Below, piece after piece: positions 29,957 to 48,911 of a DNA stretch of 64,000 nucleotides. The position numbers were made by a program, and so were the translations under genes. The stretch covers positions 2,848,001 through 2,912,000 of the forward strand of contig OY969706.1 in NCBI GenBank assembly GCA_963702095.1. Reading direction: 5' to 3'. This stretch comes from Candidatus Bathyarchaeota archaeon (GTDB taxonomy: Archaea; Thermoproteota; Bathyarchaeia; Bathyarchaeales; Bathycorpusculaceae). The notes beneath the pieces are model-generated. The model made no database searches and had not been told where the DNA came from. It was given only the letters and a program-made list of their open reading frames with translations. The first letter of the stretch is position 1; each line of letters begins with the position of its first letter.

Positions 29957-31000
29957 CTAGAAGTATTTGGTGGCTTTCTCTATGGCTGTAGCGGTGAGTT
30001 TGGCGCAGTTTTCGATGTCTTTTAAGTTTAGGATGCCGACGGGGCTGTGAATGTAGCGGGTGGGGATGGAGATGTTTCCGCTTGGAATCCCCTGCCTTGT
30101 GAGGCTTATGCGTGCGGCGTCAGTGCTGCCCAATAAGCCAGATTCGATTTGGAACGGAATCTTTTCTTTTTCCGCCGTTTCGGTGAGCCACCGCAAAATT
30201 TTGGGGTGAGTAATCAAGCCGGAGTCGCTAATGGTGAGTGCCGGTCCCTTGCCCATTTTTACGCTTGTATCGTATTCCCGTACGCCTGGCACGTCGCCTG
30301 CGATGGTTACGTCCAACGCAATTGCTAAGTCGGGGTCAACGCCGAAAGCCGCCACAGCTGCCCCACGCAACCCCACCTCTTCCTGCACAGTGCCCACAGC
30401 GCAGACAGTGCACTCGGTTTTTTGCAGCAGTTTCATGGCTTCAACCATGACTACGCATCCAGCGCGGTTATCAAACGCTTTACCCATCGCCACATCGCCG
30501 CCCAACTTGGCATATTGGACGTTAAACGCGATTGGGTCGCCGACTGCCACACCCATTTTGACCGCGTCTTCTTTGCTTTCTGCGCCGATGTCTATGAAGA
30601 GGTCGTCGAAGGTGATGATTTTTTTGCGTTCCTCCTCTTTCTGGATATGTGGAGGCTTGGAGCCGATGACACCCTGGTACGCGGTTTCTCTGGTGTAGAC
30701 AACGACCCTCTGTGCGGGTAAGATGCGGTCGTCGATGCCGCCCATTTTGCTGAATTGTATGAAGCCTTCTTTGGTTAGGGTTTTCACCATTAACCCGACT
30801 TCATCCATATGTGCCGCCAACATGATTTTGGGGGCTTTAGCTGCGCCTTTTTTGATGGCTATGACGTTTTCCATTCGGTCAAATTGGATTTCGTCTGCGT
30901 AGGGCTTTAGCATTTCTGCGAGGAGGTCTCGGACTTGGGTTTCTCTGCCCGTGACTCCGCAGGCGTTTGAAAGTTTCTCTAAGTTCTGGTTCAACGACAA
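29957..31000 (-). CDS. M42-family (TET) aminopeptidase
   Basis: AAHMDEVG, KAFDNRAG, QEEVGLRGA, LDVT, RYIHSP. Confidence 0.93.
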   Translation of the reverse strand: MSLNQNLEKLSNACGVTGRETQVRDLLAEMLKPYADEIQFDRMENVIAIKKGAAKAPKIMLAAHMDEVGLMVKTLTKEGFIQFSKMGGIDDRILPAQRVVVYTRETAYQGVIGSKPPHIQKEEERKKIITFDDLFIDIGAESKEDAVKMGVAVGDPIAFNVQYAKLGGDVAMGKAFDNRAGCVVMVEAMKLLQKTECTVCAVGTVQEEVGLRGAAVAAFGVDPDLAIALDVTIAGDVPGVREYDTSVKMGKGPALTISDSGLITHPKILRWLTETAEKEKIPFQIESGLLGSTDAARISLTRQGIPSGNISIPTRYIHSPVGILNLKDIENCAKLTATAIEKATKYF

Positions 31001-31094
31001 ATCCGTGTGCCTTCTGTTTGTGTGGGGTAAGGTGAGAGATGTTAATTATTAAACGGTTACGGTTGGGTCATCATAGGCGGAGAGTGCAACATGC

Positions 31095-31211
31095 GCTTGT
31101 AGTTTACTCCACATCTAGACCGCAATACGTTTCCGTTGCAGAACGCAAAACAAAGCCGTCCGCCAAGTCCGCTGGTAGATGATGAGTAAGGGGCGCTCTG
31201 CCTTCATCTAA
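31095..31211 (-). repeat. Dispersed intergenic element, family 2, copy F
   Basis: Minus strand: TTAGATGAAG-N17-CATCATCTAC C, 49-nt spacer, TGCGGTCTAGATGTGGAGTAAACTACAAGC. Confidence 0.8.
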
Positions 31212-31343
31212 CAATAGAACAACTAAAAGCTCGAAATTTTGATCCGCTGTTATAGGACATAGCGAGATTGCGCCTAAATTAGGCTGTGGTAAAGTTAAAT
31301 AGCACATATCCCCAGTTAGAGAATTAACCCACAGTGACCCCAA

Positions 31344-32633
31344 ATGTTAGATATCAAGCTTATCCGCGAAAACCCCGCGCTTGTCAGAGAAAACTTGGCG
31401 AAACGCAACAGCCCCGAATGCCTCCAAATGCTCGACGACCTAATCGCCCTCGACAAAGATTGGCGCCTAAACAACACCAAACTAAACGACCTCCGACACG
31501 ACCGCAAACAATGCACCATAGAAATCGCTAAACTAAAAAAAGCCGGCAAAGAAGCCGACGACGAAGTCTACAAGGCACAGGATATCGACCAAAAAATCAA
31601 ATTGATAGAGAAACAAGTCAGCGCGCAAGAAACAAAAATCCGCACTTATCTGCTCACCTTGCCCAACCTCCTTGACCCCACAGTGCCCTATGGCAAAGAC
31701 TCAAACGACAACGTCACAGTCAAAAAATGGGGCACCATCCCCCAGTTCACCTTCCCAGTGAAAAACCACATTGACCTCGCCATTGCGCTTGATCAAGTGG
31801 ACATGGAGCGGGCGGGCAAAGTGGCTGGTGCACGGTTTTTCTACCTCAAAAACGACGTAGCCAGACTTGACATGGCACTCATGTGTTTCGCCATCGACGA
31901 ACTCTCCAAGAAAGGCTACAGTGCAATAGTTCCGCCCTACCTTATGACGCGGGAAGCTTATGAAGGCGTGACTTCACTGGCGGATTTCGCAGATGTCCTC
32001 TACAAGGTGGAAGGCGAAGACCTCTACTTAATCGCCACCAGCGAGCACCCGATGGCAGCCATGTACATGAATGAAACCCTCAAACAAAACGACCTCCCAA
32101 TCAAGTTGGCGGGGGTAAGCACCTGTTTCCGCAAAGAAGCAGGTGCACACGGAAAAGACACCCGTGGCATCTTCCGCACCCACCAATTCAACAAGATCGA
32201 GCAATTCATTTTCTGCATGCCTGAGGACTCTGTTGGGCTGCATGAGGAACTGCTTGAAAACGCCGAGGGCATAGTCCAGAAACTCGGATTGGCTTACAGG
32301 GTGGTTAACGTCTGCACAGGCGACATAGGCACTGTAGCAGCCAAAAAATACGACATAGAAGCTTGGATGCCGGCGCAGGGAGATTACCGCGAAGTGGTCT
32401 CCTGCAGCAACTGCACCGACTACCAGGCACGCCGCTTAAACATCAAATACCGCCTAAAAGAAGGCGCACCCCCGCTGGGCCCAGTCCATACGCTGAACTC
32501 AACCGCTGTGGCAACTGGCAGAACCATCGTAGCTATCTTGGAAAACAACCAGAATGAGGATGGCTCCGTAACTGTTCCTGAAGTGCTAAGAAAATACATG
32601 AGCAACATCGAGAAGATAACAGCTAAACACTAA
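31344..32633 (+). CDS. serS: Serine--tRNA ligase
   Basis: MLDIKLIR, ATSEHP, FRKEAG..GIFRTHQFNK, SCSNCTDYQARRL, HTLNST. Confidence 0.97.
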   Translation: MLDIKLIRENPALVRENLAKRNSPECLQMLDDLIALDKDWRLNNTKLNDLRHDRKQCTIEIAKLKKAGKEADDEVYKAQDIDQKIKLIEKQVSAQETKIRTYLLTLPNLLDPTVPYGKDSNDNVTVKKWGTIPQFTFPVKNHIDLAIALDQVDMERAGKVAGARFFYLKNDVARLDMALMCFAIDELSKKGYSAIVPPYLMTREAYEGVTSLADFADVLYKVEGEDLYLIATSEHPMAAMYMNETLKQNDLPIKLAGVSTCFRKEAGAHGKDTRGIFRTHQFNKIEQFIFCMPEDSVGLHEELLENAEGIVQKLGLAYRVVNVCTGDIGTVAAKKYDIEAWMPAQGDYREVVSCSNCTDYQARRLNIKYRLKEGAPPLGPVHTLNSTAVATGRTIVAILENNQNEDGSVTVPEVLRKYMSNIEKITAKH

Positions 32634-32681
32634 ACCCTCTCTGTTGCATCAGTAAATCGACCGCTGGTTTGTTTTTCTTTA

Positions 32682-32799
32682 GTTGTTGTTGACGAAAACC
32701 CTCTATACACAACAACAACCAGCAGGCTGCCCTACAAGTTGCTTTTTGTTTAGTGCCAAAGCCTCTGGCTGCAGGCTGGTTGTGGAGCAAACCTCAAGC
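32682..32799 (+). repeat. Dispersed intergenic element, family 2, copy D
   Basis: GTTGTTGTTG-N18-CAACAACAAC C, 49-nt spacer, TGCAGGCTGGTTGTGGAGCAAACCTCAAGC. Confidence 0.88.
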
Positions 32800-32836
32800 A
32801 GAACAGACCCTTTAAGCAATAAAAACAACGAATGTC

Positions 32837-34444
32837 TTAATGCCTGCGCATCCTGAAGTAAACCAGCAAACCCGCGCCTATGACTACCGCTAATGCAATA
32901 CCAACGGCTACAACTGTGGCTGTCGGAAAAGGCTCTTGTATGGTAAACGTCTGTGTTTCTGAGATACCCATGTTTCCATAGGTATCATTAGCATAGACTA
33001 CAATGCTGTGCGAGCCTGCTGAGAGCCCAGTTAACGTGGTGTTACCTGTTATGGTGACGTTTTGCTGCCCATCAAGACTGTAGCCTGTCCAGTTGAGTGG
33101 TTTGTTTCCGGTGAATGTTATCGAGATATTGCTTTCAGTGTTTGTCTTGACTGACAGTGGTGAAACATGAATTTCGGGCGGGGTATTTTGTAGCAGATAT
33201 GTGCCAGTAGTGAATGGTTGCATAAGTGGGTACCTGTCTACGTTCTTTAGGTCGAGTTGATGATACCATGTTTTTAGCACGTAGGGGGTGTTGACTATTC
33301 CTGTGTTGTCTATTTCAGTAGCGTTGGGATACCTATCGCAGTAATCGCTCCAGTAGTTACCCCCAAATGGATAGCCGTCATCCCAAACGTTAACTGGCTC
33401 GGCTGAATCAATGGTTGCGGTTTCAGCTTGGACGTCGTTGTTGATGAAATTGTTGTGGTAGATGGTGTTGTTCGAAACACCCCATATCATTACTCCCTTA
33501 GAATTCCCTTCAATTTGATTTCTCGTAATGACATTATTTTGGCCCGCAAAGAAATCTATACCTATATCGTTATTCGTCAGGTTATTTCCAGTTACTACGT
33601 TTGAATTTCCAGAAATACCGATCCCGGCGCTTGGTGAGCTAAGAGAGTAAAAGTTGTTGCCCGTTTGAGTTATCGTGTTATTAGCGATAACATTAAACTT
33701 TCCGCCAACTATTATACCAAACCAGCCGCCCACAATTGTAAGGTCTGTTACAGTTACATTTGATGCTTCACTTAATGAAAGTGTATAGACATTTCCTGGG
33801 CTGCTTCCACCATAAACTAGAGAATAGCCATTCCCTTTGAGCACTATGTTATCTTTATTCACTGTTATTCTTCCTGTTATGTTGTTTGTCAAAGAATAGA
33901 TGTTGCCGTTTTGTTGGATGGATACGTTTGAGGGGTTTATGCTTTCATCGGCGTTGATGGTGATTTCAAGCGGAGGCGTATAAGGGGTTTGGGGCATGGT
34001 GTTGGGATTGGGAATAACTGTATATGTTGTTTGGGTTTCAGAAGGAAGATAGGTTACTCCATTTTCAAATGTTTTGCCAAGAAATCTTGCCTTAAGCGTC
34101 CATGTGCCCACTGCCGAAGTTAAGTCAGTGTATAAGCCGCCAGTTCTATTGCCGCCGGGGCTGAAATTAACTGCAATATTTTTTTCGGTGCCGTCAGGCT
34201 GTATGGCGGTGAAGGCAAAGTTGGTGAAGTAATCATGCTCATTTGGTGGAGCAGGGTTTATTGCCAAGCCAACGTTCGCTATAGTGCCGACAGCAACAGA
34301 ATTTGTACCGAATGATAAAATAGTTAACGATATGGACGTTTTTACGTACGATTGAGCGCCAACAGATGCAGGAGCAATTATTATTAGAACTAAATTTAGA
34401 ACTAACAGAATGATTAGGACCGGGAGGGGAACATTTTTTTTCAT
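32837..34444 (-). CDS. Surface protein with NosD/CASH parallel beta-helix and C-terminal TM anchor
   Basis: Signal peptide, Asn-rich beta-helix repeats, NNTIYHNNF, GGNYWSDY, DRYPLM, C-terminal TM with basic tail. Confidence 0.85.
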   Translation of the reverse strand: MKKNVPLPVLIILLVLNLVLIIIAPASVGAQSYVKTSISLTILSFGTNSVAVGTIANVGLAINPAPPNEHDYFTNFAFTAIQPDGTEKNIAVNFSPGGNRTGGLYTDLTSAVGTWTLKARFLGKTFENGVTYLPSETQTTYTVIPNPNTMPQTPYTPPLEITINADESINPSNVSIQQNGNIYSLTNNITGRITVNKDNIVLKGNGYSLVYGGSSPGNVYTLSLSEASNVTVTDLTIVGGWFGIIVGGKFNVIANNTITQTGNNFYSLSSPSAGIGISGNSNVVTGNNLTNNDIGIDFFAGQNNVITRNQIEGNSKGVMIWGVSNNTIYHNNFINNDVQAETATIDSAEPVNVWDDGYPFGGNYWSDYCDRYPNATEIDNTGIVNTPYVLKTWYHQLDLKNVDRYPLMQPFTTGTYLLQNTPPEIHVSPLSVKTNTESNISITFTGNKPLNWTGYSLDGQQNVTITGNTTLTGLSAGSHSIVVYANDTYGNMGISETQTFTIQEPFPTATVVAVGIALAVVIGAGLLVYFRMRRH

Positions 34445-34652
34445 GCTATCAACCTCTTAACTAATGCGTATACTGAAAAGTTTGTTTAAGCTTGCGTATC
34501 TCCCTCATGTTTGTTACTTCATTCAGGTCTATGGTATTCAAGGGTTTTTCAAGGAGCATTTTTGAGAGACCTCATCGAAATTCTTCTTTTTTAGTGAAAC
34601 TGACGGTATAAAAATAAAAAAGGGAAAATTTTAGCCTAGTCAGCGATCGCAT

Positions 34653-37479
34653 TTACCATACCAAATTGTAGTATGCAGTTAGTATTTTGGGGGAAGTGAC
34701 GGGTATTGATTGACCGTTGTAGTAGTAATTTCCATTTTGGTCTATGAAACAGCTAAAGACAGCATACATGGTAGGCATGCCCGGAAGCTGAAATGAATTT
34801 GTGACGGTCACTATATGGCTGCCAGAAGTTACGGCGATACTAATAGGGGCTGTTCCAACCGGATTTGGATTGTCAACCCAAACATAAGGATTCAGTTGAA
34901 TCCAGCCACCGAGAGTAGCCTGTACGCTTAATGTGTTCCCGATAGTTACATATGTTGAGCTGTCACGGGTTAACCCAGTACTGCTATGTGCCCTAGCTGT
35001 AACCGTATAAACGTTTGGTGAGGTATACGTGTGAGTAGTTGCTGGCGTCCAACCCGAATCGTCGCCGTAATTAAACTCAAAACTTAAGCTATGGCCACAG
35101 GGGTCTATAGAAGGAGATGCTGAGAATTGGTATTCATGGTATGTAACGCCGGGATAAGGTACGTTGTGACTTATGGATGGTGTGCTAATGTAATCGGGGC
35201 TGCCTAGATCTTAGGCGTATGTTACCATTTCCATAAACAGCCATTCTGCTTGCTATTCTTGTCCCGTTGATGCTGTCCAGATATGGCCAATGTGCGACAA
35301 ATCCAACACAGAGGGCCGTATCTCTAAACAGTTGAGTGTTAAAGCAATCCTGTGAGGCAGAATTTAAGGCCGAATTCACCGTTTCGTGACAATCAAGGGC
35401 ATGGTAATAGAAAGCATGAACAAAGTCGTAGTAGGTTGCAGTTGTATTAGACCAAAAGTTGTCTATCGGTAATGCTAGAGCTGGAGAACCCCAAGGAAAG
35501 CCGATGTAACAATATCCGCTAGTCTCGTCTGGATTTTTATAGCCCTCGTTAGGTATACCTGTTGCGTTATGAGTCCAAGCATAAGGCATACCTATAGGTG
35601 CACCAGAATTCGGGTAAGGATTTGCACCATATTGTCCGTTGCCGATAAGGTGTGGCGGTGGCTCGTTCGGAGGAGGATCAAGATTTTGTAGATCGGTCTT
35701 ACCTGACATGCATGCACTTATGAATGAGAAGTAGTTGTTGCTTGTTGAAGTTGCGGCATATATTTGGTAGTCAAACACATCATTGATTGGATCATTCTCG
35801 CCTGCTGTAGCCCCGCAGAGCATAAAGTGAAACTCGGTCGGATAGTTTTGCCAGTTTGGTATCTGTAGGTTTTGACTCAGCGGTGGTTGACTTACATTAT
35901 TTGGTAATCCTATTCCGTGGTCAAACCAGATTGTAGCAGTACCTATATGGGTTTGTTCGTGGGATTGGGTGGATGATAAAACAGCACTTGGGGTAGTACC
36001 GCTTGAGGGTTGATGGTTATAGTGGTCATATCCATGATTATAGAACCTGCTATCAATGTATGCACTAAGGTCACGTTGAGCGTCAATTTCTCCTTGTGTA
36101 TGAGGGTTAGGATATGAAGGTGAGATCGCTGGGTGCGTGTCAGCCCATATATCAACACTTCCGTCCGTTGCACTAGCTGTCGCGGCTGTTGATGCTAAAG
36201 CTAATATTGCCGCTATGAATAGCAAAAGGCAAAACGCTAATCCGCTGCTTTTACGCATTTTGGGTATAGTTAAAGAATGACGAAGCCAAGGTTTCTCTTG
36301 AGTCAACAAGAACAGAATAGCGATAACTATAAACGTCATCGAAACGGCTGGTATCCATATGTCTGAAAAACCGTTCGCCGTACTGGATACTTGAATGTCC
36401 ATCTTAGAGCTTTCAGCGATTGTAGCGACCTTTGCGTTTGCTGGCAGAGGTAAAGTGGAATATACTTCCTGTCTGTCTCTGACTTGTCCAGTATCAGCCC
36501 AGACACCTACATGAATTCCGTAAACTTTTCCGGGGTAATACTTGTCTAAGCCAACTCCGATACTCCAAATTGGATATAGTGTTAAGGGATTGCTGTTTCG
36601 TGCATTAGAAGCATTGCCTGCTTTTTCGAAGAATAGGTTAGCAACGATCGGTTCTGTTACGTTAAAATTATTGATTAAAGATTGTTGGCTATCCGTGCCC
36701 ACTTTCCAAGAGAAGGTTTTCGCATTTTGTATAGCTATGGCTTCGGCTTGGTGTTTAGAAAGCTTTACAGTAGTGCTACCTATCGGGTATAGATTCCAAT
36801 TATCAATGAAACCTTTTAAGAAGCCATCCTTGTAACTCAAGGATACGCATTTACAATCAGCGTCAATTCCATCGGACGTGTATGACCAAGTAAACGTTGT
36901 GATGTTATCTATGGTTGAATTGCCTGTAAGTGCTTCAATTTTAAAGTGCATGTTGCCAATAGTAGTTGTTGAATTCTTGGTCGCGTCAATCCCCTTCAAT
37001 GTTGAGACAAGTTGACCATAGAATGGGTCTGCTGAATATTCTTGATAGTTAAGTAGGAAAAATATAGCCTTCTGGACTGACATCACTGATATTAAGGATT
37101 CGTCAAATGTTGAAGCAACTTTTGATGGTAACGCCTGTATCTTATCCCAGCGAGAGTCTTCAAGTACACTCATAATCTGCAATGATCCCTGGGTAAAAGT
37201 TGCTTGAATTTCTGCAGTGTCTCCAAGACAAAAAAGGCTATAACGAACATTTTCTGTTGGCAAAATTCCCAGATATGTATCGCTTGGGTTTACGGTTGTA
37301 ATGGCATTATATTGTGTTAGGTTAAAGCCAGCCACTTTATCAATCATGCTCAGCCCTTTTTCTACAGAATCTGTTGGTTTTGCTTGCGCGCTTGGCGTAA
37401 TGGTATAGATACTAGAAATCGCCAGAATTATTAAGCAAATTGTTAGGAGTAAAAGCTTTCGCCTAAAATTCCTTACCAT
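34653..37479 (-). CDS. Large membrane-tethered surface protein with caspase/gingipain-like and PKD domains; +1 frameshift at about 35196
   Basis: ORF 35185-37479 continues, after removing one C of a C4 run, into DYISTPSI..FNYGDDSGW..HTYTSPNVYTVTARAH (PKD-like) up to TAA at 34653. Confidence 0.7.
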
Positions 37480-37894
37480 TTTTTATTTTCTCCTTTTTTT
37501 ATATGTGCAGCTCTTATCTTCTTTACCGCCTTACCAGTAGGTTGTATTTACTTATCAAATATTACATATTTGATTATTTAAAAACGAAACTAAGATTTGC
37601 GCAAAAATGGGTGAAAAATGTCATTTTATAAAAATATGGTGATTAAATTAGTCGAATAGTTGCGATTCTATTACTACTTTTTAACATTTTTATGCATGAT
37701 TTTATGAAAAGAGTCCTGTAGAGCGTCTTGTATCAGCCAAGAGGCTTGATAAATCTAATCAGCGGAGATGGTTCCATTAGCTGTTCCTGAAGTTTTGAGC
37801 AAATACATGCGGCTACAGAGAGAAAATAGCCAAGAAACGCTAAAAGTTTTAATATGGGCTTGAGAATCTTCTGGGTCGTCTCGGAGAAATAAGT

Positions 37895-38572
37895 TTGTCA
37901 ACAAAATCCGCCAAGCACATACGCGACAAATGGCGCGCTAAATCATGGTACATGGTAGTTGCGCCTTCGTTTTTCGGCAACATAGAGTTAGGCAGCATTC
38001 CAGCTCAAGACGAAAAAATGTTAATCGGCAGAGTCGTAGAAGCAACCCTCTATGACATAACAGGTGACTTTTCACATCATTACCTCAAAATGTTCTTCCA
38101 AATCAACATCATAGAAGGCAAAACCGCCCGAACCCTCTTCAAAGGACACGAATACTCTCGTGACTACCTAAGAAGCCTCGTGCGCAGAAGAACCACAAAG
38201 GTAGATGGCTTATTCAACCTCACAACAAAAGACGGCTACAAACTCCGAATATCCGTTTCAGCCCTGACACTCTCACGCATAAAGACTTCACAGGAAAAAA
38301 TCATCCGCGACATGATGGAAAAAATCATCCGCGACAAAGCCGCAGCCCTCACACTCGACCAGTTCGTACAGGAAATGGTGTTGGGCAAAATCGCCTCAGA
38401 CATCTACAACCAAGCCAAACTCATAGCGCCACTACGCCACGTCGGCATACGCAAATCCAAACTCATCAAAGCCCCAGAAGGCGCCGCCAATGTAGCACCA
38501 ATACCACTCGCCCCAGTCGAAGAGGCAGTTGAGGAAGAAGTCGAAGAAGAAGAGCCAGCCCCAGTAGAATAA
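37895..38572 (+). CDS. rps3ae: 30S ribosomal protein S3ae (eS1)
   Basis: DKWRAKSWY..APSFF, SRDYLRSLVRR, PLRHVGIRKSKL. Confidence 0.95.
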   Translation: MSTKSAKHIRDKWRAKSWYMVVAPSFFGNIELGSIPAQDEKMLIGRVVEATLYDITGDFSHHYLKMFFQINIIEGKTARTLFKGHEYSRDYLRSLVRRRTTKVDGLFNLTTKDGYKLRISVSALTLSRIKTSQEKIIRDMMEKIIRDKAAALTLDQFVQEMVLGKIASDIYNQAKLIAPLRHVGIRKSKLIKAPEGAANVAPIPLAPVEEAVEEEVEEEEPAPVE

Positions 38573-38652
38573 ACAACCTTTTCCACTCTTCATTTTTGGT
38601 GCAAAAGGTTTATTCTTATTTCATCCAGTTTACATACGGGAGAGCGGTGACT

Positions 38653-39574
38653 TTGAAAGTTACGGCGTTAGCAGGCGGAGTAGGCGCAGCCAGATTCTTA
38701 ACAGGCCGTCACACGTTTAATCAAAGAAGACGACCTCACAGTAGTCGTTAACACAGGCGACGACATAGAACTCTTCGGTTTACACATCTCCCCAGACATC
38801 GACATAGTCACCTACACGTTGGCGGGCATCGTGGATGAAGAGAAAGGCTGGGGCATCAGAGGCGACACCTTCCACTGCCTCAGCATGCTAAAAACCCGAG
38901 GCGCCGACACATGGTTTAACCTTGGCGACCGCGACTTAGCCACCCACATCTACCGAACCGACCGCCTAAGACAAGGCTTCACGCTCTCAGAGGTTACAGC
39001 TGAAATCGCCAAAGCAGTGGGGCTAAAAGCCAAGATACTGCCGATGAGCAACAACAAATTCGTAACAAGAATAACCACAAAAGACGGCTCCATGCATTTT
39101 GAAGAATACTTTGTGAAGCGGCAGTATAGAGACGAAGTTTTAGGCATAGACCTCGTGGGTGCAGAAACCGCTAAGCCTTCCCCGGGTGTTTTGGAGGCGG
39201 TTTTTGATGCGGATTTGGTAATTGTTTGTCCAAGCAACCCCGTAGTCAGCGTCGGCACCATCCTCTCAGTCAGCGGCGTCAGAGACGTGCTTAGGCGGAC
39301 GGATGCACGGGTGGTGGCGGTCAGCCCGATTGTGGCGGGGTCTCCGCTTAAGGGTCCAGCGGATAAGATGATGCGGTGGCCGGGCGTTGAAGTTTCAGCT
39401 TTCGGCGTTGCTGGTCTCTACTCGGATTTCATCGATGCTATAGTGATCGATTCTAAAGATGCTGCTTGCAAGGATCGAATTGAAAAGCTGGGTTTGAGGG
39501 TCGCCGTAACTAATACGGTGATGGCTACTTTGGAGGATAAGGTTTCTTTGGCTAAGGCTGTCTTGGAAAGCTAA
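38653..39574 (+). CDS. cofD: 2-phospho-L-lactate transferase CofD; +1 frameshift at about 38707
   Basis: TTG start MKVTALAGGVGAARFLTG joins VVVNTGDD..ISPDID, LGDRD, PSNPVVS, GPADKMM. Confidence 0.85.
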
Positions 39575-39665
39575 CGGTTCAATATAGAATAAGGTGGCAT
39601 CTATAGATTATATGGGTACAATAAATAGGGCAGACAGGGGCTTCTTTATTTAACGTGCAACGGAC

Positions 39666-39740
39666 ATGCCAAACAAGAAAATAAAGAAACGGCGTGCAAA
39701 AGTTGAAGTTGAAACAGCATGGTACTTCAACCATGTTTAA
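39666..39740 (+). CDS. Candidate microprotein, 24 aa
   Basis: MPNKKIKKRRAKVEVETAWYFNHV with TTTATTTA just upstream. Confidence 0.3.
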   Translation: MPNKKIKKRRAKVEVETAWYFNHV

Positions 39741-39762
39741 ACAGGTAGAGTGAGGGGAAAGT

Positions 39763-39858
39763 ATGTTGAAACAGGAAACGGGTAGTAGTAAGCAAGCGAA
39801 AGCTAAGGACTCAGACCTTATCGATTGGGTTTTAGCTATAGATGCCTGCATCAAATAA
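39763..39858 (+). CDS. Candidate microprotein, 31 aa
   Basis: MLKQETGSSKQAKAKDSDLIDWVLAIDACIK preceded by SD-like GTGAGGGG. Confidence 0.35.
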   Translation: MLKQETGSSKQAKAKDSDLIDWVLAIDACIK

Positions 39859-39978
39859 ACAAGGTAGAATACCGCCAAAAAGGTCAAAGAACAGAGTATT
39901 CCTTCTCCGAGTGTACAATTATTAAAGATAAGGGTTATATCTTCAAGCTTAATATTGGATTATTAAACCGGAGCTGGT

Positions 39979-40650
39979 ATGATGGAGAAAAAAAGTTACG
40001 ACTGGTTTGAACAACGCCGAAAAACCAGAGGCTTAGAACTCGCTCATGAACAAATAACAAAAGCATTCGACACAGTGACTTTACTACAGAAAGCAACCAA
40101 ATCCTTCGCAGACAAAAACTATAAAGAAACCAAAAAATACATTGAAAACCTCTACAAAGCCGAAGAAGAAGTCGACCAACTTCGAACAGACACCTTCATG
40201 GAACTATCTAAAGGTGCAGCGCTTGTTTCAGATTACAGAGAAGACCTTCTGCACCTGGTTAAACGGTTAGACACCTTAGCAGACCATGCGAAGGATGCTG
40301 CCCGATGCCTCGAAATGCTAGGAGAAACCGAGATTCCGACAGAACTTTCCGATAAAACCGTATTCATGGCTTCTAAACTCGTTGAAACCGCCCAGACCCT
40401 GCGGAACAGCATTGAGAAAATCTCTTCAGCACCCAATGAAGCCATCCGTGAAGCCAAGAAAGTCGGCGAAATAGAACACTCCATCGATGTAGAATACCTC
40501 AAAGTCAAAAGCTTATTCGTCAAATACGGCGTGGGCATGAACTGTGGAGCCATGGTCATATTCGACGACCTAATAGAGTTCATCGAGCAAGCCGCAGACA
40601 TGTGTGCGGATACAGCAGACTACATTTTGGTTCTCTCAAACAGAGAATAA
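39979..40650 (+). CDS. DUF47 / PhoU-like phosphate transport regulator
   Basis: EEEVDQLR, REDLLHLVKRLDTLAD, IEHSID, IEQAADMCADTAD duplicated helical motifs. Confidence 0.85.
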   Translation: MMEKKSYDWFEQRRKTRGLELAHEQITKAFDTVTLLQKATKSFADKNYKETKKYIENLYKAEEEVDQLRTDTFMELSKGAALVSDYREDLLHLVKRLDTLADHAKDAARCLEMLGETEIPTELSDKTVFMASKLVETAQTLRNSIEKISSAPNEAIREAKKVGEIEHSIDVEYLKVKSLFVKYGVGMNCGAMVIFDDLIEFIEQAADMCADTADYILVLSNRE

Positions 40651-40751
40651 ACTTTCTTTTCTTCTCACTTTTTGGGCACCCTAAGGTTTGCTGTTCATAT
40701 TTTCGTAAATTTAATATTGAATGAAACATGGGATTGCTTGTAAGGATAGAG

Positions 40752-43117
40752 ATGAAAACTGCACCCGCACTTCTAGTGGTTCTGCTCTTCTCAGTAACGC
40801 TATCACTCACTCTACCAGCCGCTTCTGCCAGTACCAACACAAGCGTAGGTTGGCCTATGTTTCGCCATGACCTCTCAAATAGCGGTTACACAAACAGTAG
40901 CCTTCAAGCCAACTCCGCTGAACTCCTCTGGCGTTTCCCCACAAGCGCCTCAGTCCTATCTTCGCCTGCAATAAGCGACGGCTTAGTATTCTTCGGTTGC
41001 AAAGACTGCCACATCTACTGCGTCAATGCTACCACAGGCGAACTGTCGTGGCGTTTTCCAACAGGGCACGAAGTTAACTCTTCGCCTGCAGTCTACGAGG
41101 GCTGTGTCTATGTGGGCTGTGATGATGGCTGGGTTTACTGCATGAACATCTCTACTGGGATGCCGGTTTGGATTATGTGGGCTGGGGGGTATGTGCGGTC
41201 GTCTCCTGCAGTGGTGGACGGTCGGGTTTTCATCGGTTCAGGTAGCCATGATGTCCTCTGCTACAATGCCTCAGATGGAGCCCTTATCTGGCGGTACCCC
41301 ACCTCGTTGCGGGTGGATTCTTCGCCGGCAGTTGTAGACGGCGTGGTGTATGTTGCATGCGACGACTATCACCTCTACGCCCTCAACGCTTCCACGGGAG
41401 AAAAAATCTGGAGCCAATACACCGGCAGCAACCAAAACTCCCCCTGCATAAGTAACGGGTACATCTACATCGGAGCCTACAACGGCTGGGTTACCTGCGT
41501 AGATGCCTCCACTGGCACGCGGGTTTGGACAACCCAAACAGGCGACACCGTGGGCTCTTCCGCCGCTGCGGCTTATGGGCGAATCTACGTGGGCTCAGAA
41601 GATGGCAGCATCTACTGCCTAAATGCATCTGACGGCGCTAAGCTTTGGCAGACCAAAACCGGCTATTGGGTGTGGTCTTCGCCCGCAGTCGCCAACGGCT
41701 ACCTATTCGTGGGCTCCCAAGACTACCATCTCTATTGCCTCGACGCATACACTGGAGCAGAAAAATGGAATTACCGTGCCGACTGCATCATCGACTCCTC
41801 CCCCAGCATTGTGGGAGACACACTTTATTTTGGCTCCCACGACTATCACCTCTACGCATTCCGCCTAACCGCTACAGCCTCTCAGCAAACAGCAGTTAAT
41901 AATCCATTAGCTTGGTCCACAATCGTCTTTGACATACTCTTCTGTGCGGTTTGGGCAGCTGTCCTCTTATTTCTCATCCGTTACCTCTACGCCAACCGCA
42001 GAGTGCTTCAAACAATACGGCCTATAACTGGGCGTTGCTCGATTGAACAATGGTTCTCAGCCAACATTAACCTACTCGCTGGTTTAGTCATCATTGTTTT
42101 CATCGTTGTTTGCTATTTGAACCTCAATGGTGCGCCGCTCTGGGCTGCAGACGAAAAAACCTACAGCCAAATCGCCTATCATACCGTTAGAAGCGGAGAC
42201 TATTTTATCCCATGGGTTAACGGGGAACCCGCGGTTTGGGTTGGCAAGCCGCCGCTTCTACTGTGGCTGATATCGGTGTCCTATCAGGCGTTGGGCGTTA
42301 ACACTTTTTCCACTCGAGTTTGGCTTCCACTGTTTGGAGCAGGCGCATTGGCGGTAACATATTTTTTGGGCAAAAAACTCTACAACGCCAAAGTCGGGTT
42401 GCTTTCCATGGTGGTTTTGGGCACTTTCACCACTTTCTATGCGTTTGCAACCCATGCCATGACCGATGTCCCTTTGATTTTCTTTATGCTGGCAAGCATC
42501 TACTGCATGCTCCAAAGCCGAGAAAAAACAAATCACACTTTCAGATATGCTATTTTGGGAGGGGCCTTTTTGGGTTGGCGTTGATGACAAAGCAGCTTGA
42601 AGCCCTGCTGATTCCGATGATACTGCTACTCTACTTTGTCTTTGCTAAACAGGTACGGTTTGTATTCTCCAAGCAGGTGGGTGCTTCTTTGGGTACAGCT
42701 GCAGCCATATTTGTTCCATGGGTGGTCTACATGAACTATCTTTCCAAGGACTTCTGGAACTGCTACTTCGTATATAACAACCTCTCAAGACTAACCAACC
42801 CCATTGAAGGTCACACCCAAGGCTACCTCTTCTATTTCCAGTATCTGTTGACTAATGAGACTGTTTGGGCACTGCTTTTGCCCTTTGCACTTGGACTATG
42901 CATCTATATGGCTGCGGTTAAACGTTCCAAGCCTGATATGCTGGTGCTGGTTTGGGCGACAATTGTGCTGGTGGCATTTACGTTGGCGCAAACCAAAATC
43001 TACTGGTACATATTGCCCGCGTTACCTGCTTTCGCATTTGCCATAGCCAACTTGCTCTATTACACTGCAACAAGAATCCACCTGCACAGAACCAAAGAAA
43101 AGAATGCATCACCCTGA
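40752..43117 (+). CDS. PQQ-like beta-propeller fused to an ArnT/PMT-type (GT-C) glycosyltransferase; frameshift at about 42570
   Basis: Signal peptide, WPMFRHD, eight SSPAV..G..W repeats, then DEKTY, KPPL, TDVP; ORF 42320-43117 supplies GLALMTK..WYILPALP. Confidence 0.8.
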
Positions 43118-43157
43118 ATTTCTCGCTAATCCCTCTCGTAGGTTAAAAGCAGAAGGT

Positions 43158-43385
43158 TTGTTGCTCTGCCGCATCCTCTCTTCCCCTATAAAAGGGCAAA
43201 ATCGGCTTTGTCTCTTTATGTGGGTGTGGCGGTTTATAGGGTGCCACAAGAAGGCAGGTGGGGGCGGTTGCTTTTTGGGTTTGCATTGTTTTTTGGTGCC
43301 TGTTTCGGTGTGGGATATGCGTTTTCTTCCACACGCGGTACATGGCTCTATGTTGAAGCGGGTTGTATATGGATGTGAAGCAACA
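43158..43385 (-). repeat. Dispersed intergenic element, family 1, copy C
   Basis: GTGTGG-N15-CCACAC at 43308-43334, conserved block 43207-43231, tail TTGTTGCTC at 43158. Confidence 0.85.
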
Positions 43386-43487
43386 TACAGAACCAAAAAA
43401 ACAAACACACTTTCACTGATATTTGGATTGAATCGGTAAACCCTTTTGTTTTAATTAAAATATTTGAGCTGTCCAATTAGGTAACGT

Positions 43488-44339
43488 ATGTTTGATTTCC
43501 TAGTCTACGTCGCCGCCGTTGCCTCCCTCATCGCCGCATTAGTTTACATCCGCTCGATGTTTAGGGGGCAGACTAAACCCAACAGGGTAACCTGGTTCAT
43601 GTGGTGTGTTGCCCCGTTTGTGGCGACTGCAGCCTCTCTATCCAGCGGTGCAAGCCTAGCCGCCCTGCCTGTCTTCATGTCGGGGTTTGGTCCATTACTC
43701 ATATTTACCGCGTCGTTTTTTAGCAAAAAAGCATACTGGAAACTTTCATCCTTCGACTATGCCTGCGGCGCCTTCTCTGGATTAGCCCTTATTCTATGGT
43801 ACATAACCAGCAACCCAAATGTGGCAATCGGTTTTGCTATAGTAAGCGACGCATCTGCGGCTATCCCCACCCTAATCAAGGCATGGCGTAACCCCGAATC
43901 AGAATCTATCTGGCCCTACCTCGTCGGCTTATTTGCTCCGATGACAAGCTTTCTTGTTGCACCTGCCTGGTTTTTCTCGGCATTGGCGTTCCCCGTCTAT
44001 CTGGTAGCGATAAATGTGTTGCTTGTTGCTTCAGTATCTAAAGGACGATTAGCTCATAATAGTTTGAAAAGAAACTCCGCCAATAAACCAACCAAAATAG
44101 CAACAACCACAACCGCAATAACGAAACGTGGCCCCGCCGCTTTGACGCTCTGTATGAGTCGAAGCCCAATAGCCACAAACAAGGAAAGAACAACCCCTGC
44201 CAAAATGGACGTAGTTATGGGTACTTCAGGATACAAGATTACGCCGACAAGCGGCACTATCAAAACAGGCAGAATTAAGCTGGGCATAATCAAAGACCAC
44301 TTGCCTGTCCATAGCATCCCAACACCACAGGTCTGTTAA
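43488..44339 (+). CDS. Hypothetical membrane protein (C-terminal about 95 aa probably spurious)
   Basis: Hydrophobic first about 185 aa (TKPNRVTW, PTLIKAWRNPESE); the tail overlaps an opposite-strand ORF. Confidence 0.65.
   Translation: MFDFLVYVAAVASLIAALVYIRSMFRGQTKPNRVTWFMWCVAPFVATAASLSSGASLAALPVFMSGFGPLLIFTASFFSKKAYWKLSSFDYACGAFSGLALILWYITSNPNVAIGFAIVSDASAAIPTLIKAWRNPESESIWPYLVGLFAPMTSFLVAPAWFFSALAFPVYLVAINVLLVASVSKGRLAHNSLKRNSANKPTKIATTTTAITKRGPAALTLCMSRSPIATNKERTTPAKMDVVMGTSGYKITPTSGTIKTGRIKLGIIKDHLPVHSIPTPQVC
44054..44317 (-). CDS. Small membrane protein (about 3 TM)
   Basis: 87-aa hydrophobic ORF directly downstream of 44336-45310. Confidence 0.6.
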   Translation of the reverse strand: MLWTGKWSLIMPSLILPVLIVPLVGVILYPEVPITTSILAGVVLSLFVAIGLRLIQSVKAAGPRFVIAVVVVAILVGLLAEFLFKLL

Positions 44340-45310
44340 CCCTCTTTATTCTTAAGGGTTTCCAGAATAGGAGGTTTATGCTTGAAGAGCAGCGGCAAAC
44401 CCACCGTTGGAATCGACAGCACCCATAAGTTAAGGTTTCCTAGGAACCACAAGTACCAGTAGCTCCACGTTTCATCTTTTCCAAAGAAAATCCATGTGAG
44501 GTAATTGATAAGGTGGAGCAAGCCCAATGCGGTAATGATGGCGCCGACTGTTTGAACATTTAGTTTTTCTATGTTTTCTGTTCCAATGGATTTTTTGGTG
44601 AAGTAAGCAGTAAAGATGGTTAATGCAAGCATTCCAAACGCTGTTAGAGCGAAACTGAACAGGTTTTCTGGGTAAGCCAAATACTGGGTTCCCTGCCGCA
44701 GTATGGTTGATACCCAAATGGCAGTGCTGGTAAGCCAAAACACCAAAATGTAAACCGTGCCCGCAATCAACCCCCATTTTATTGCTCCCTTCACTGGTTT
44801 GTTGGGGCCCAATTCGTGGGATAGCTTGAACAAAGCAATGGGGATAACAATGGATTCTATCAGAAGAGGCAAGGCGTAGATTAAAATGGAATTAAAAATT
44901 GGCAGCGTCGAGATGTGACCGTTGACACGCCAAATGGTGAAGCCAACCGTGGAAGATAACGTCAGAACGGCGGTAGTTAGCAGCCCCAGCCAGTAAAAGG
45001 CTTCCCCAATCAAAACCAGCCTTAAAAGCTTCTTTACCCTCTGAGTTGAAAGCCCCTTCCTTACTAAGTAGAGTATGGCTCCTCCAAAGGCGATGGCGCT
45101 GGCAACGAGTCTGGCGGCGACTCCGATGGCTGCCGAAACGTCTTCAGCAAAAATAATTTGCCGCAGGGAGCCGCCGAAGGATTCCCATTCGCCAACCCAC
45201 GAAAGGTTAAACATGGCGTGGACGGTTAATAGGAAATAAGCAGTGGCGACTATGAGGAACCCAATGTTGAGCGGTGAGTAGACGTTTGGCTTTGTCATTG
45301 TGCTTAGCAA
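44336..45310 (-). CDS. Hypothetical multi-pass membrane protein
   Basis: 324-aa ORF with about 8 hydrophobic segments. Confidence 0.75.
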   Translation of the reverse strand: MLSTMTKPNVYSPLNIGFLIVATAYFLLTVHAMFNLSWVGEWESFGGSLRQIIFAEDVSAAIGVAARLVASAIAFGGAILYLVRKGLSTQRVKKLLRLVLIGEAFYWLGLLTTAVLTLSSTVGFTIWRVNGHISTLPIFNSILIYALPLLIESIVIPIALFKLSHELGPNKPVKGAIKWGLIAGTVYILVFWLTSTAIWVSTILRQGTQYLAYPENLFSFALTAFGMLALTIFTAYFTKKSIGTENIEKLNVQTVGAIITALGLLHLINYLTWIFFGKDETWSYWYLWFLGNLNLWVLSIPTVGLPLLFKHKPPILETLKNKEG

Positions 45311-45350
45311 GCATTTAGAAGCTAAGTGCTTTTATTTTTTTGGTTGGGGA

Positions 45351-45429
45351 TGGCGGGCCCGGAGGGATTTGAACCCTCGATCTCCGGCTCCGCAGGCCGG
45401 TGTAATAATCCGTACTATACAACAGGCCC
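45351..45429 (-). tRNA. tRNA-Arg(GCG), intron-less, CCA encoded
   Basis: GGGCCTG/CGGGCCC acceptor stem, CCGGC-CTGCGGA-GCCGG anticodon arm, GAGGG-TTCAAAT-CCCTC T arm, GCCA end. Confidence 0.93.
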
Positions 45430-45629
45430 ACCTGTCTTTTGCCCCAAAAAATTTGAGGCAGAAATAGGTAATACGGTGCTTGAACTTAAGAATAGTGGTA
45501 CATAAAAAACAGAGCTAACTCCACAAGGTTAGAAACGCCGTTTAGACTTCAAGTAAATTATATTAGCCAACAAACAGTAGCCTACTTGGTGAAGTTGAAC
45601 TGGCATATGGTATACGCACGAGAAAGCCA

Positions 45630-47006
45630 GTGCTGTTCTCCATCGTTTTAGTGGTTCTTCTGCTGGCTACTCAACCTCCGCCGGCGACTTCTGCGCAAAT
45701 CTGGAACTCCGACAGCAACGGCAGCAACAATTCCGCCTACGATGGCAATGGCACTATCCAAATCGACGCTCCAAAAGGTACCTGGTCCATGTATTACACT
45801 GCACTGCCGCAGAATTGGCGAAGCTTCAATGTATCCGTAGATGTTAACGCTCAGGACCTGCAGGGCTTCTACGTTATCGCTAAGGGCGATCTTCCTCTTG
45901 TCGGCGAAACCGATGATTTAACCTGCGGCATAGGTCCCTATTCTGATGATGGAGGAGGCGCACTCTCGACTTCTGCAACATTTGGAAATCATACAAGCGC
46001 CGCACACTTGAACTTTGATTTGATTCAAACAAACACTTGGTATACTCTTGTTATCAGTTTAGACTTGCAGCAGAATTTCTTCAGGCTTATAATGTTTAAC
46101 GCAAGCGGCACTTACCTGGGCGGTTCTTCAGGTGGAATAGATCCTGAAATTCTTGCGTCAATCAGTCAACTGAAGTATGTCGGGTTTGGCGCTGGCTTAA
46201 ACGGCGGCAGCTACACCGTCCGCAACGTAAAATTAGTAACTGATCCGCCCCTGCCTGAAACCGATCCATCAAACGTGCTATTGACGTCAATGCTTTCGTT
46301 TTCTTGCCAAAGCTCGGTGATCAATAGTTCACAGTTCAAAGTGGACGTTAAAGGTAACATAACTCTAGATGGAGTACCGCTATCCAACGCTCAAATTCTC
46401 TTCTCCTACAGTATCGGCAACGGAACCGTATGGAACGACATAGCCTCAGTGTACTCGGATGCAATGGGCAACTATTCCTTGATGTGGCTGCCTACTGAAG
46501 CGGGAACTTACCTGCTGCGGGGCACCTACAACGGAAACGCAACAGTACCAGCGGCAAGCAAAACGGTCAGTTTCGCCCTCTTGCCCTATGAACATAAAAG
46601 CATATTCTCCGTAACCTCAAACTCAACCATCTCTAGCTTCGCCTTCAACTCCACGGCCAACCAGATAAGCCTCTCAGTAACGGGTCCCAACGGAACCCAA
46701 GGCTATACAGAAATAACCATACCCAAGTCTATGCTGCTTGATGCTTCAAACCTCCAAGTAAGCCTCGACGGTGCAGAGGTGAGCTATACAGTTCAAGAGC
46801 AAGGGGACATATGGGTAATCTCCTTAAACTATCACCATAGCTCTCACCAAATAACTGTAGCTTTGAACTCGGAGAGCTCAAATCGCATCGAAGGACTCCC
46901 ACCCCAACTAGTCTACATAGTACTGGCTTTAGTAGTGATTGCAACTGCTACAGCATTGGCAGTTCTGTTTGTTATGACCCGCAGAAAAAACAGCGGTGGG
47001 CTTTAG
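45630..47006 (+). CDS. Secreted surface protein with Ig-like domain and C-terminal TM anchor
   Basis: Signal peptide, beta-rich body, SNSTISSFAFNS..YHHSSH C-terminal domain, TM followed by RRK. Confidence 0.75.
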   Translation: MLFSIVLVVLLLATQPPPATSAQIWNSDSNGSNNSAYDGNGTIQIDAPKGTWSMYYTALPQNWRSFNVSVDVNAQDLQGFYVIAKGDLPLVGETDDLTCGIGPYSDDGGGALSTSATFGNHTSAAHLNFDLIQTNTWYTLVISLDLQQNFFRLIMFNASGTYLGGSSGGIDPEILASISQLKYVGFGAGLNGGSYTVRNVKLVTDPPLPETDPSNVLLTSMLSFSCQSSVINSSQFKVDVKGNITLDGVPLSNAQILFSYSIGNGTVWNDIASVYSDAMGNYSLMWLPTEAGTYLLRGTYNGNATVPAASKTVSFALLPYEHKSIFSVTSNSTISSFAFNSTANQISLSVTGPNGTQGYTEITIPKSMLLDASNLQVSLDGAEVSYTVQEQGDIWVISLNYHHSSHQITVALNSESSNRIEGLPPQLVYIVLALVVIATATALAVLFVMTRRKNSGGL

Positions 47007-48625
47007 GTTTGGCTTTTGTTTAGCACCCTCTCAAGAGCTGCAATCACGTTGTCTTTGCCCATGGCTAAAACGTATGGTCCCAGCTTTGGACCCTGCGGCG
47101 CACCCATCAACACTGAATAGAGCACTCTAAAGAAGGCGCCGGGTTTGATGCCGTTGTTTTTGGCTGCTTGGAAGATGGCGTTTTGGATTTTGTCTGGGTC
47201 ATCCTCTGTTTTCAGTTGCGTAACCAGCTCCAAGATGGCTTTGCGTTCTTCCACGGATAGTTCCACGTTGGTTTCTTTGATATCCTCAAAGTCCCTTGTC
47301 CAATTTTGGGCGAACTGTATGCGTTGCTGTAGGGCGGCGTCGATGACTTGGCCTTTTTGGAGGTAGCCGTAGCTTTGCAGTTTCTCTGCGACGTAGTCGT
47401 TTATGCATTCTTTGGGCGCCATTTTAACCAGGAACGCCATGAGGTTGTAGGGGGTGTGGATGCTGGGTTTAGAGGGCGGTTTCATGACATAGCAGTATTG
47501 GTAGATTCCTTTGAGGCGGATGGCTTCTTTTTCGCTGGGCTGTTTCTTGCCAAAGTAGACGTCTTCGAGGTCGTCTAGTTCATTCATGTACGAGGGGATG
47601 TCGGAGACGTCGAGTGAACGTGTGCCTACAAACCGTTTAAGCATAAGAAGCAAAAGCGACTGCGGCGAACCATAGTTGAACCAGACCTGCGGCGTGAACA
47701 CGTTGCCCGCGGACTTGCTGATTTTTTTGCCGCCCTTATCGAGGAACATTTCGTATTTGGCGTGGCTGGGCGGTTCGAACTGGAGGACTTCGCGGCAGAT
47801 GCGGTCGTTTATGCGCACGGAGTCGGCGATGTCTTTGCCGTAGGCTTCAAAGCGGATGTCGAGTGCTTTCCAGCGGGCGGCGAATTCGCTTTTCCATGTT
47901 AGTTTGCCCTGTCCGCTTTTGATGTCTACTTCGCCTTCGTAGCCGCAGCCGGGGATTAGTTTGCCCCTGATTTCGAGTCCTTCGCATTTGTATGTGACTT
48001 TGTCGGTTTTGGGGTCGAATTTGTAGGCGCGGGTCGTGTAGAGATGACCGCAGTTTTCGCAGACAGCAAAAAACGGCAGAACTTCACTGTAGGTTTCCTG
48101 TCCCACCTCCTCTTTGATGATTTCGCCGACCTGTTTGGCGTTGGTTAGGAGGGTTCTGATTTCGTTTAGCAGCAACCCCTTTTTGTAAACTTCGTTAGCG
48201 GAATAGTACTTGTATTCGATGCCGCATTTGTCCAGCGCCTCAAGCAGTAGGCTGCTCATGTGTTTGCCGTAGCTTTCGTGGCAGCCGAACGGGTCAGGGA
48301 TTGTGGAGACGGAGTAACCGAGGTATTTTTCTAAACCTTGAGCGATGTCGGCTGGTAAGCCTGCGGGGACTTTGCGTAAGCCGTCTTTGTCGTCGCAGAA
48401 GGCAACCAACTCTGAGTTGCAACCTAGGTTTTTAAGCGCCAAAGTAACCGCGTAGCTGCGGCTGGCGTCGCCTAAGCTGCCGATGTGCGGAAAACCTGAG
48501 GCGCCCAAACCCATTTCCGTGCGGACTCTGCTCATGTCTCGCTTCAGCGATTGTTCCCGCTCGATGACTTTTTTTGCCATCATGTCGTACCATGTGCCTA
48601 AACCGACGATAGTTTCATCGCTCAT
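47003..48625 (-). CDS. lysS: Lysine--tRNA ligase, class I
   Basis: GASGFPHIGS (HIGH), KISKSAGN (KMSKS), EAYGKD, QGPKLG. Confidence 0.95.
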   Translation of the reverse strand: MSDETIVGLGTWYDMMAKKVIEREQSLKRDMSRVRTEMGLGASGFPHIGSLGDASRSYAVTLALKNLGCNSELVAFCDDKDGLRKVPAGLPADIAQGLEKYLGYSVSTIPDPFGCHESYGKHMSSLLLEALDKCGIEYKYYSANEVYKKGLLLNEIRTLLTNAKQVGEIIKEEVGQETYSEVLPFFAVCENCGHLYTTRAYKFDPKTDKVTYKCEGLEIRGKLIPGCGYEGEVDIKSGQGKLTWKSEFAARWKALDIRFEAYGKDIADSVRINDRICREVLQFEPPSHAKYEMFLDKGGKKISKSAGNVFTPQVWFNYGSPQSLLLLMLKRFVGTRSLDVSDIPSYMNELDDLEDVYFGKKQPSEKEAIRLKGIYQYCYVMKPPSKPSIHTPYNLMAFLVKMAPKECINDYVAEKLQSYGYLQKGQVIDAALQQRIQFAQNWTRDFEDIKETNVELSVEERKAILELVTQLKTEDDPDKIQNAIFQAAKNNGIKPGAFFRVLYSVLMGAPQGPKLGPYVLAMGKDNVIAALERVLNKSQT

Positions 48626-48720
48626 AACAGGTTGCCTTCTGCCAAATGACTATGCGAGGGTATAGAAAAATGTTTAGAACCAAAAGCTTCTGGTGACTTA
48701 AGAGGTTGGTTTTTTCGTTA

Positions 48721-48838
48721 GTTGTTGTTGGCATAAACCGCCTATACTCAACAACAACCTGCGGGTTTTGAGGCAGCGCCTGTTTTGAGGGCGGGTTGTA
48801 GGGTGGATTGCAGGCTGGTTGTGGAGCAAACCACAAGC
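48721..48838 (+). repeat. Dispersed intergenic element, family 2, copy E
   Basis: GTTGTTGTTG-N18-CAACAACAAC C, 49-nt spacer, TGCAGGCTGGTTGTGGAGCAAACCACAAGC (29/30 identical to copy D). Confidence 0.88.
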
Positions 48839-48911
48839 TCGGTGGTGGTCTATAGTTGCGTTAGACTCTTATTCTACACACATGCTAACATGACTGTGTA
48901 GGTGGGGGTCT

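Follow-up and report, generated by a model that had tools for sequence, protein, structure and literature searches.

The 64,000-nucleotide (nt) stretch of Candidatus Bathyarchaeota archaeon DNA analyzed here (contig OY969706.1, positions 2,848,001 to 2,912,000; "the window" below) contains three copies, D, E and F, of a repeat, referred to as Family 2, that occurs about 180 times and makes up about 0.75% of the genome. The preferred reading, with a probability of roughly 65%, is that it is a lineage-specific family of non-autonomous mobile repeats, previously undescribed, of the miniature inverted-repeat transposable element (MITE) or repetitive extragenic palindrome (REP) kind, found in part of one Bathyarchaeia genus. 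The repeat is small, non-coding, present in many dispersed copies and polymorphic for insertion, and in those points it agrees with the definition of a MITE. It is no textbook MITE, because no target-site duplication was found and inverted repeats are present in a minority of copies.

Architecture and size of the family

Direct reading of the sequence and alignment showed that D, E and F share one architecture: a hairpin, one C, a 49-nt spacer and a 30-nt block. The alignment of the three is gapless across 141 columns. The hairpin of D and E is GTTGTTGTTG-N18-CAACAACAAC and that of F is TTAGATGAAG-N17-CATCATCTAC. TTTTG stands at spacer positions 24-28 in all three (alignment columns 77-81, invariant), and the 30-nt block is identical at 29/30 positions between D and E and at 24/30 between F and E. 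At the level of sequence this likeness is far above chance. The preliminary description of this DNA had reported the same hairpin, C, spacer, TTTTG and block, and these proved to be base-exact; its count of three copies was far too low.

The genome is a single contig of 2,937,366 bp. An nhmmer search of it, seeded by D, E and F, gave 175, 181 and 182 matches in three iterations, and 164 of the 182 are near full length. A covariance model built on the same three copies, as the preliminary description had suggested, gave at least 150 matches. With about 180 copies in the genome, evenly spread along the contig, the family is large, and D, E and F are no three-copy curiosity.

The core unit is about 131 nt long and non-coding. 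The consensus starts with a T-run and then CTAG or CTATAG, followed by a hairpin with triplet-repeat arms. After the hairpin come CCAGC, the spacer with an internal T-run, and then TTGCAGGCTGGTTGTGG-loop-CCACAAGCAGAAC; the conserved 30-nt block terminates in CAAGCAGAAC. Two subfamilies are recognized. Subfamily A (57/164 copies) has the arms GTTGTTGTTG / CAACAACAAC and subfamily B (101/164) the arms AGAWGAAG.. / CTCWTCWTCT, with 6/164 copies unclassified. At three stem positions subfamily A has T-A and subfamily B has A-T, a compensatory change, and pairing there is 86-96% overall. Two other pairs form in A but in B are mainly A.A or T.T, and no covariation is seen within B. The median nearest-neighbor identity is 0.79, and 15/164 copies have a twin at 90% identity or more.

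The spacer combines a variable sequence with a nearly invariant length. It is 49 nt long in 150/168 copies and 48 nt in 10/168, at a mean pairwise identity of 0.54. TTTTG (87 copies) or TTTTT (44 copies) occupies the same spacer site in 131/168 copies. The spacer sequence drifts at about the neutral rate and its length is nearly free of insertions and deletions (indels). The earlier view of a dispersed element in which pairing and spacing are kept while sequence varies was thus borne out.

Shared ends

Sorting of the flanks revealed an inverted-repeat motif of about 25 bp. A simple regular expression for an inverted repeat performed no better than chance in the genome, and a position weight matrix (PWM) was used instead, with a threshold of 14 bits and the 182 nhmmer matches as cores. 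The PWM consensus is CCCCCTTTAACAGTAGATCAAAATTT, and the motif contains ..TTTAACAGTAGATCAAAATTT... It has 134 matches in the genome, compared with 12 on one strand of a shuffled genome (about 24 for both strands). Thirty matches flank a core immediately on its 5' side and 29 on its 3' side, and all of these point inward; 3 point outward and 72 are elsewhere. Ten units have the form motif-core-motif and measure 180-219 bp. About one third of copies carry the motif.

A further module, P (CTGTTGCTCTGCCG-N6-CTCCCCTCCCC), lies outside the motif in some copies. It precedes Family 2, a second family (Family 1) and a third one. Judged by sequence, shared ends are common to the repeat and at least two other repeat families in the genome. 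By analogy, shared ends with unrelated insides would be the appearance of MITE families driven by one enzyme.

Family 1 (..TTTCTCTTTATGTGGGTGTGGCGGTTTA..GGGTGCCACAAGA..) follows module P and a TATA-like CCCCTATAAAAGG. Its copy in the window has an open frame of about 80 codons from ATGTGGGTG. Further sites in the genome are at 380682, 471740, 968842, 363627 and 1971078, and the family is very abundant in three relatives (G007, G005 and G014).

Distribution and turnover among relatives

Matches are present in 17 of 36 other genomes of the genus and missing from 19. The counts in the positive genomes are at least 53, at least 53, 41, 38, 25, 18, 6, 5, 3, 3, 2 and 2, with five singletons. Other genera of the order, represented by 24 genomes, yielded a marginal match in a single genome (E 7.9e-4). 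A viral collection searched with two patterns gave no full copy and one 19-nt chance match in one viral contig.

Turnover was followed in a sister genome, G007, by mapping the flanks of 40 copies and of the locus orthologous to copy E (L059) onto the genome under study. Twenty-one G007 copies adjoin a copy there, and both flanks agree for five. At L080, G007 has a motif-core-motif unit and the genome under study has 44 nt of unrelated sequence. At L115, the G007 motif-core-motif unit sits between module P and the body of Family 1 and is absent from the genome under study. Four shared positions hold subfamily A in G007 and subfamily B in the genome under study; at one of them, L082, both flanks are orthologous (85% and 89% identity). 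For several G007 copies the two flanks are far apart or inverted in the genome under study, so that these copies mark rearrangement breakpoints.

Locus L093 of G007 (C19:12898-14438) carries a direct tandem, an A copy and then a B copy 9 nt apart; the genome under study has a B copy only.

The two genomes differ at 0.43 (serS) and 0.45 (lysS) synonymous differences per site (pS). Over the 35 most variable columns of the repeat the positional orthologues are 0.17-0.89 identical, and 6/21 reach 0.69 or more, against a paralogue background that averages 0.37 (99th percentile 0.66). Over 48 conserved columns all 21 are 0.80-0.98 identical, in a comparison that is biased toward recognizable copies. 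The variable parts appear either to drift about neutrally or to be replaced. The conserved blocks and the length are retained, whether active copies renew them or selection acts on them in place.

Proposed mode of movement and the search for an enzyme

If the family is mobile, its members would be moved in trans by an enzyme that reads the shared ends, the two conserved blocks at fixed distance, or both. Reading of blocks at a fixed distance would explain the kept spacing despite near-neutral spacer drift. The preferred guess is a cut-and-paste or copy-in route of the DDE type through the inverted repeats. Recombination between copies at ectopic sites occurs as well.

The Sulfolobus elements SM1-SM4 are examples of prokaryotic MITEs. 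Like MITEs, the repeat is short (a 131-nt core, about 200 bp with motifs), non-coding and dispersed in intergenic copies, forms subfamilies, is patchy among close relatives, has inverted motifs common to several families and shows insertion polymorphism. It differs in the lack of a detected target-site duplication, in having the motif in about one third of copies, in its unusually invariant internal length and in the absence of an autonomous insertion sequence (IS) with the same ends from six genomes examined. The Correia elements of the bacterium Neisseria have 26-bp terminal inverted repeats and a TA duplication, are about 100-150 bp long, reach high copy number and are inserted near genes. 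No cognate transposase is known from their host genome. The likeness of the repeat to them, by description only, lies in size, high copy number, inverted ends where present, insertion near genes and the lack of a recognized transposase; neither the 26-bp terminal repeats nor the TA duplication was seen here.

Several observations weigh against mobility. Most copies are old. The missing IS with the same ends is one such point. An all-against-all comparison of crude open reading frames (ORFs) in the genome (2647 ORFs, each 100 aa or longer, that together span 81% of it) showed no multi-copy transposase, and Pfam searches for Y1, TnpB, IS110, IS4/5 and IS630 were negative, other transposase families lying outside these searches. 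At the threshold used, the inverted-repeat motif is missing from two thirds of copies; it could represent an independent module or a favored target and not the end of the element. A search for target-site duplications found none: the longest direct word shared by both flanks has a mean of 5.68, compared with 5.65 for mismatched flanks (n=164), and no duplication was seen by eye at 15 motif-bounded units. The empty sites at L080 and L115 are not clean single-event junctions. The conservation of the 48 columns at a pS of 0.43-0.45, with few indels, could mean selection in place. Finally, a pair of IS6-like DDE genes in the genome (PF13610), which share 53% identity and carry a SWIM zinc finger at the N terminus, were rejected as the partner: they have no matching or inverted ends and do not co-occur with the repeat. 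The gene is present in 17/36 congeners overall, 8/17 with the repeat and 9/19 without it.

These IS6-like genes are possibly domesticated. A homologue in G007 has palindromic GTATATAC-type repeats upstream.

Other candidates were examined. IS630 was rejected as the partner; it occurs in 19/86 genomes of the genus and in no element-rich one, and its ends are unrelated. IS4/5-type genes are present in 2/5 element-rich relatives. A 2.47-kb region between two motif matches holds radical-SAM and CitG genes and no IS. A 3' half-copy that has the motif is accompanied by a transposase fragment about 480 nt upstream; this is a lead and not evidence.

The hairpins as possible targets of an HUH enzyme

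The ends of IS200/IS605 elements and palindrome-associated transposable elements (PATEs) have subterminal hairpins and no terminal duplication, and the repeat resembles them in both. The preliminary description had proposed a single-stranded DNA hairpin target of an HUH (Y1) enzyme. Such an element would be REP/REPIN-RAYT-like or a miniature IS200/IS605 end pair (PATE), with the 5' hairpin as the left end and the 3' mini-hairpin as the right end. Besides the hairpins near both ends and the lack of a detected target duplication, the absence of inverted terminal repeats from most copies and the compensatory swaps in the 5' hairpin are consistent with this proposal. Long-lived copies could also fit the observed age, by analogy with REPINs.

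Movement by an HUH enzyme is nevertheless quite unlikely. Y1 (PF01797) is absent from the single-contig genome and from 4/5 element-rich relatives. The sole IS200 tnpA, in the remaining relative (G034), is flanked by GC-rich hairpins unrelated to the repeat, where the model scores just 8.3 bits. TnpB is absent from all six genomes tested, the genome under study and the five rich relatives. There is no replication-strand bias: 78 copies are on the plus and 90 on the minus strand, in a random order (runs z -0.4) with no switch along the contig, the origins being unmapped. In the subfamily B stem, A.A and T.T mismatches are common and do not covary. At the middle position of the 3' mini-hairpin, 62% of copies have a pair, compared with an expected 58.5%, hand-calculated from base frequencies, and that hairpin shows one double change only among 88 copies. 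With neither a Y1 enzyme nor a strand bias, the repeat cannot be classed as REP- or IS200-like.

REPINs with their RAYT, which are hairpin-bearing intergenic repeats, can persist vertically over the long term, according to a preprint (bioRxiv 10.1101/2021.07.10.451892). The repeat is alike in that its copies are old yet keep key blocks. It differs in having no Y1/RAYT gene, and its unit does not consist of paired inverted short palindromes.

Placement in the genome

The preliminary description had linked the repeat to aminoacyl-tRNA synthetase genes. Its gene distances were confirmed, with the 5' ends of E and F lying 85 nt from the lysS start and 122 nt from the serS start, respectively, and D starting 39 nt past the serS stop. 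The association itself was rejected. Of the 164 near full-length copies, 147 are simply intergenic (at most 60 nt of overlap with crude ORFs). No orientation rule was seen; the upstream gene has the same orientation as the repeat in 74 cases and the opposite one in 73, and the downstream gene in 59 and 88. Convergent gene spacers are over-represented, with 45/147 copies compared with 229/1098 background long spacers. A copy stands upstream of lysS at the site of E in 5/80 related species, and G007 also has one. In the serS 3' region of 10 relatives, serS is directly followed by a conserved promoter and the next gene in 9; G007 alone has a copy there, inverted relative to D. The location beside tRNA synthetase genes is a coincidence.

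Two features of these sites were noted in passing. Between serS and the relatives' next gene the genome has about 5 kb of extra DNA (window about 32640-37786), with D at its left edge, which holds a NosD/beta-helix protein (32837-34444, minus strand) and a 764-aa ORF without a Pfam match (35185-37479, minus strand). Upstream of lysS (window 48626-48690), GGGTATAGAAAAATGTTTAGAGCCAAAA is strongly conserved in 11/11 species aligned and is presumably the lysS promoter seen on the opposite strand; G007 has a near copy of this stretch beyond the repeat.

Tests for RNA, protein and in-place function

An explanation by host maintenance was also considered, in which the copies are small RNA genes or fixed-distance DNA sites for a chromosomal protein. 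In the RNA version each copy would have its own 5' end resembling a promoter (T-rich/CTATAG), together with a handle that is conserved, a stretch that is variable and guide-like, and an oligo-T stop in its interior. The features that argue for it are the 49-nt spacer kept at 54% identity, the TTTTG or TTTTT at one spacer position and the 5' end TTTTTCTATAG, which is similar to the TATA-like portion of the conserved lysS promoter, CATTTTTCTATAC. The sister genome adds the 6/21 positional orthologues that retain their own spacer (0.69-0.89) and the conserved columns kept in all 21.

The tests of structure did not bear out the structured non-coding RNA proposed earlier. Folding z-scores for the three copies on both strands were -0.15, +0.31, +0.26, +0.01, -1.81 and +0.05, so the repeat folds no better than shuffled sequence. 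The minimum-energy fold of E and F omits the proposed hairpin. RNAalifold, run on 164 copies and per subfamily, gave essentially no consensus; slippage of the triplet arms, together with the ability of the 3' arm to pair with the 3' block as well, keeps mean pair probabilities low. The 5' hairpin shows 44 double changes compared with 13.7 +/- 3.2 in shuffled data (0/500; 88 copies from several genomes). The excess stems from the subfamily split, which also dominates mutual information. A partner slid by three columns still pairs in 70-78% of cells because the arms are triplet repeats. Within subfamilies no helix covariation was found, and in the spacer nothing stacked or helix-like was seen. 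An Rfam search, also suggested in the preliminary description, matched no family: at gathering thresholds it returned only tRNA in the window, and a permissive search over the copies gave best E values of 2.2-3.5 at 13-18 bits, against cut-offs of 41-60.

Other results also speak against host maintenance. The spacers have no convincing off-family targets as guides in the genome; best target scores had a median of 30.2 and a maximum of 42.1, compared with 28.2 and 38.2 when the spacers were shuffled. The genome has no partner of the Cas12/TnpB type. A TATA box at the T-run would, judging from the spacing, start the transcript inside the hairpin loop. The copies have no preferred orientation relative to genes, and the 19/36 congeners without the repeat show that it is dispensable. 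The conservation seen in the sister genome comes from a test in which recognizable copies alone were compared. Host maintenance is therefore unlikely. An archaeal element kept by selection, either as blocks 49 nt apart read by a non-canonical protein or as a dispersed guide-like RNA family, is similarly improbable; the protein in question could be a factor that organizes the chromosome, or a recombinase that differs from known transposases.

The preliminary description had named decayed copies of one protein-coding gene as an alternative, and a small coding gene family, decayed or live, was tested. One frame is stop-free in 65/125 ungapped copies, compared with 8-26/125 in the five other frames, and a slight three-column periodicity is visible in the entropy (0.89, 1.02 and 1.08). 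The ratio of nonsynonymous to synonymous differences (pN/pS) in that frame is 0.88, however, within the 0.79-1.07 of five control frames. The second codon position is not the most conserved. The open frame has no common start or stop, and it is interrupted by TAA at codon 5 in 22 copies and by a stop at codon 40 in 12. The subfamily translations VVV..QQQ and EEE..HHL follow base pairing and not protein chemistry. At this level of testing a coding origin was rejected, and it is very improbable.

Significance of a probably mobile repeat in Bathyarchaeia

Little has been described of the mobile DNA of Bathyarchaeia, which are both abundant and uncultured. A full-text literature search combining Bathyarchaeota/Bathyarchaeia with MITE terms found no paper. 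The group is absent from the main text of two large surveys, which deal with archaeal IS and prokaryotic MITEs (PMC13343696, PMC11602168); the supplementary MITE lists of these could still contain the family. A family of about 180 copies in promoter-proximal spacers and at breakpoints breaks assemblies. It can mislead the prediction of RNA motifs and regulatory elements, as in the apparent synthetase link, and it offers a marker of strain-level evolution in the lineage. A mobile repeat with no recognizable transposase, a strict length and hairpin swaps at the same locus would be a useful case for finding a new mobilizing enzyme.

Features of the window and further observations

The coordinates of the three copies, their neighbors and related features are collected in Table 1.

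Table 1. Coordinates of the repeat copies and associated features (window positions unless marked as genome)
Feature	Position	Strand	Remarks
M42 peptidase gene	29957-31000	-	
Copy F, subfamily B	31086..31226	-	arms AGATGAAG / CATCATCT with mismatches; covariance model 130.5 bits
Inverted-repeat motif TATAACAGCGGATCAAAATTT	31233..31253	-	just 5' of copy F, pointing into F
Seryl-tRNA synthetase, class II (serS)	31344-32633	+	
Degenerate motif TCTGTTGCATCAGTAAATCGA	32640..32660	+	5' of copy D; by eye, below PWM threshold
Copy D, subfamily A	32668..32808	+	covariance model 146.2 bits; nhmmer match at genome 2880672-2880802
Copy D, T-run/CTTTAG	32672-32681	+	
Copy D, hairpin arms	32682-32691 and 32710-32719	+	C at 32720
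Copy D, 49-nt spacer	32721-32769	+	TTTTT in the region of spacer positions 24-28
Copy D, 30-nt block	32770-32799	+	tail AGAACAG until about 32806
Family 1 copy	43150..43420	+	module P start (GTTGCTCTGCCG..CTTCCCCTAT), related tail CAGAACCAAA..ACTGATA
Lysyl-tRNA synthetase, class I (lysS)	47003-48625	-	
Copy E, subfamily A	48707..48847	+	covariance model 146.1 bits
Copy E, hairpin arms	48721-48730 and 48749-48758	+	
Copy E, spacer	48760-48808	+	
Copy E, block	48809-48838	+	
IS6-like DDE+SWIM genes	genome G000:C1:1962820-1963947 and 1161831-1162919	-	
Four IS6-like fragments	genome 1195097, 845260, 1149651, 430054		

Three gene families elsewhere in the genome were recorded. Three paralogous genes for a T4-type terminase large subunit (C1:1090399-1091847, 1210465-1211913 and 2735002-2736447) suggest several proviruses or virus-derived regions, and the last of them adjoins a 3'-half copy of the repeat. 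The largest paralogue cluster of the genome is an 11-member family of proteins of about 890 aa with PQQ-like beta-propeller and filamin-type repeats, for example at 2279478-2282147 and 1294910-1297630. Four TFB (TFIIB) paralogues with at least 50% identity are located at 2106728, 253493, 2921494 and 577929.

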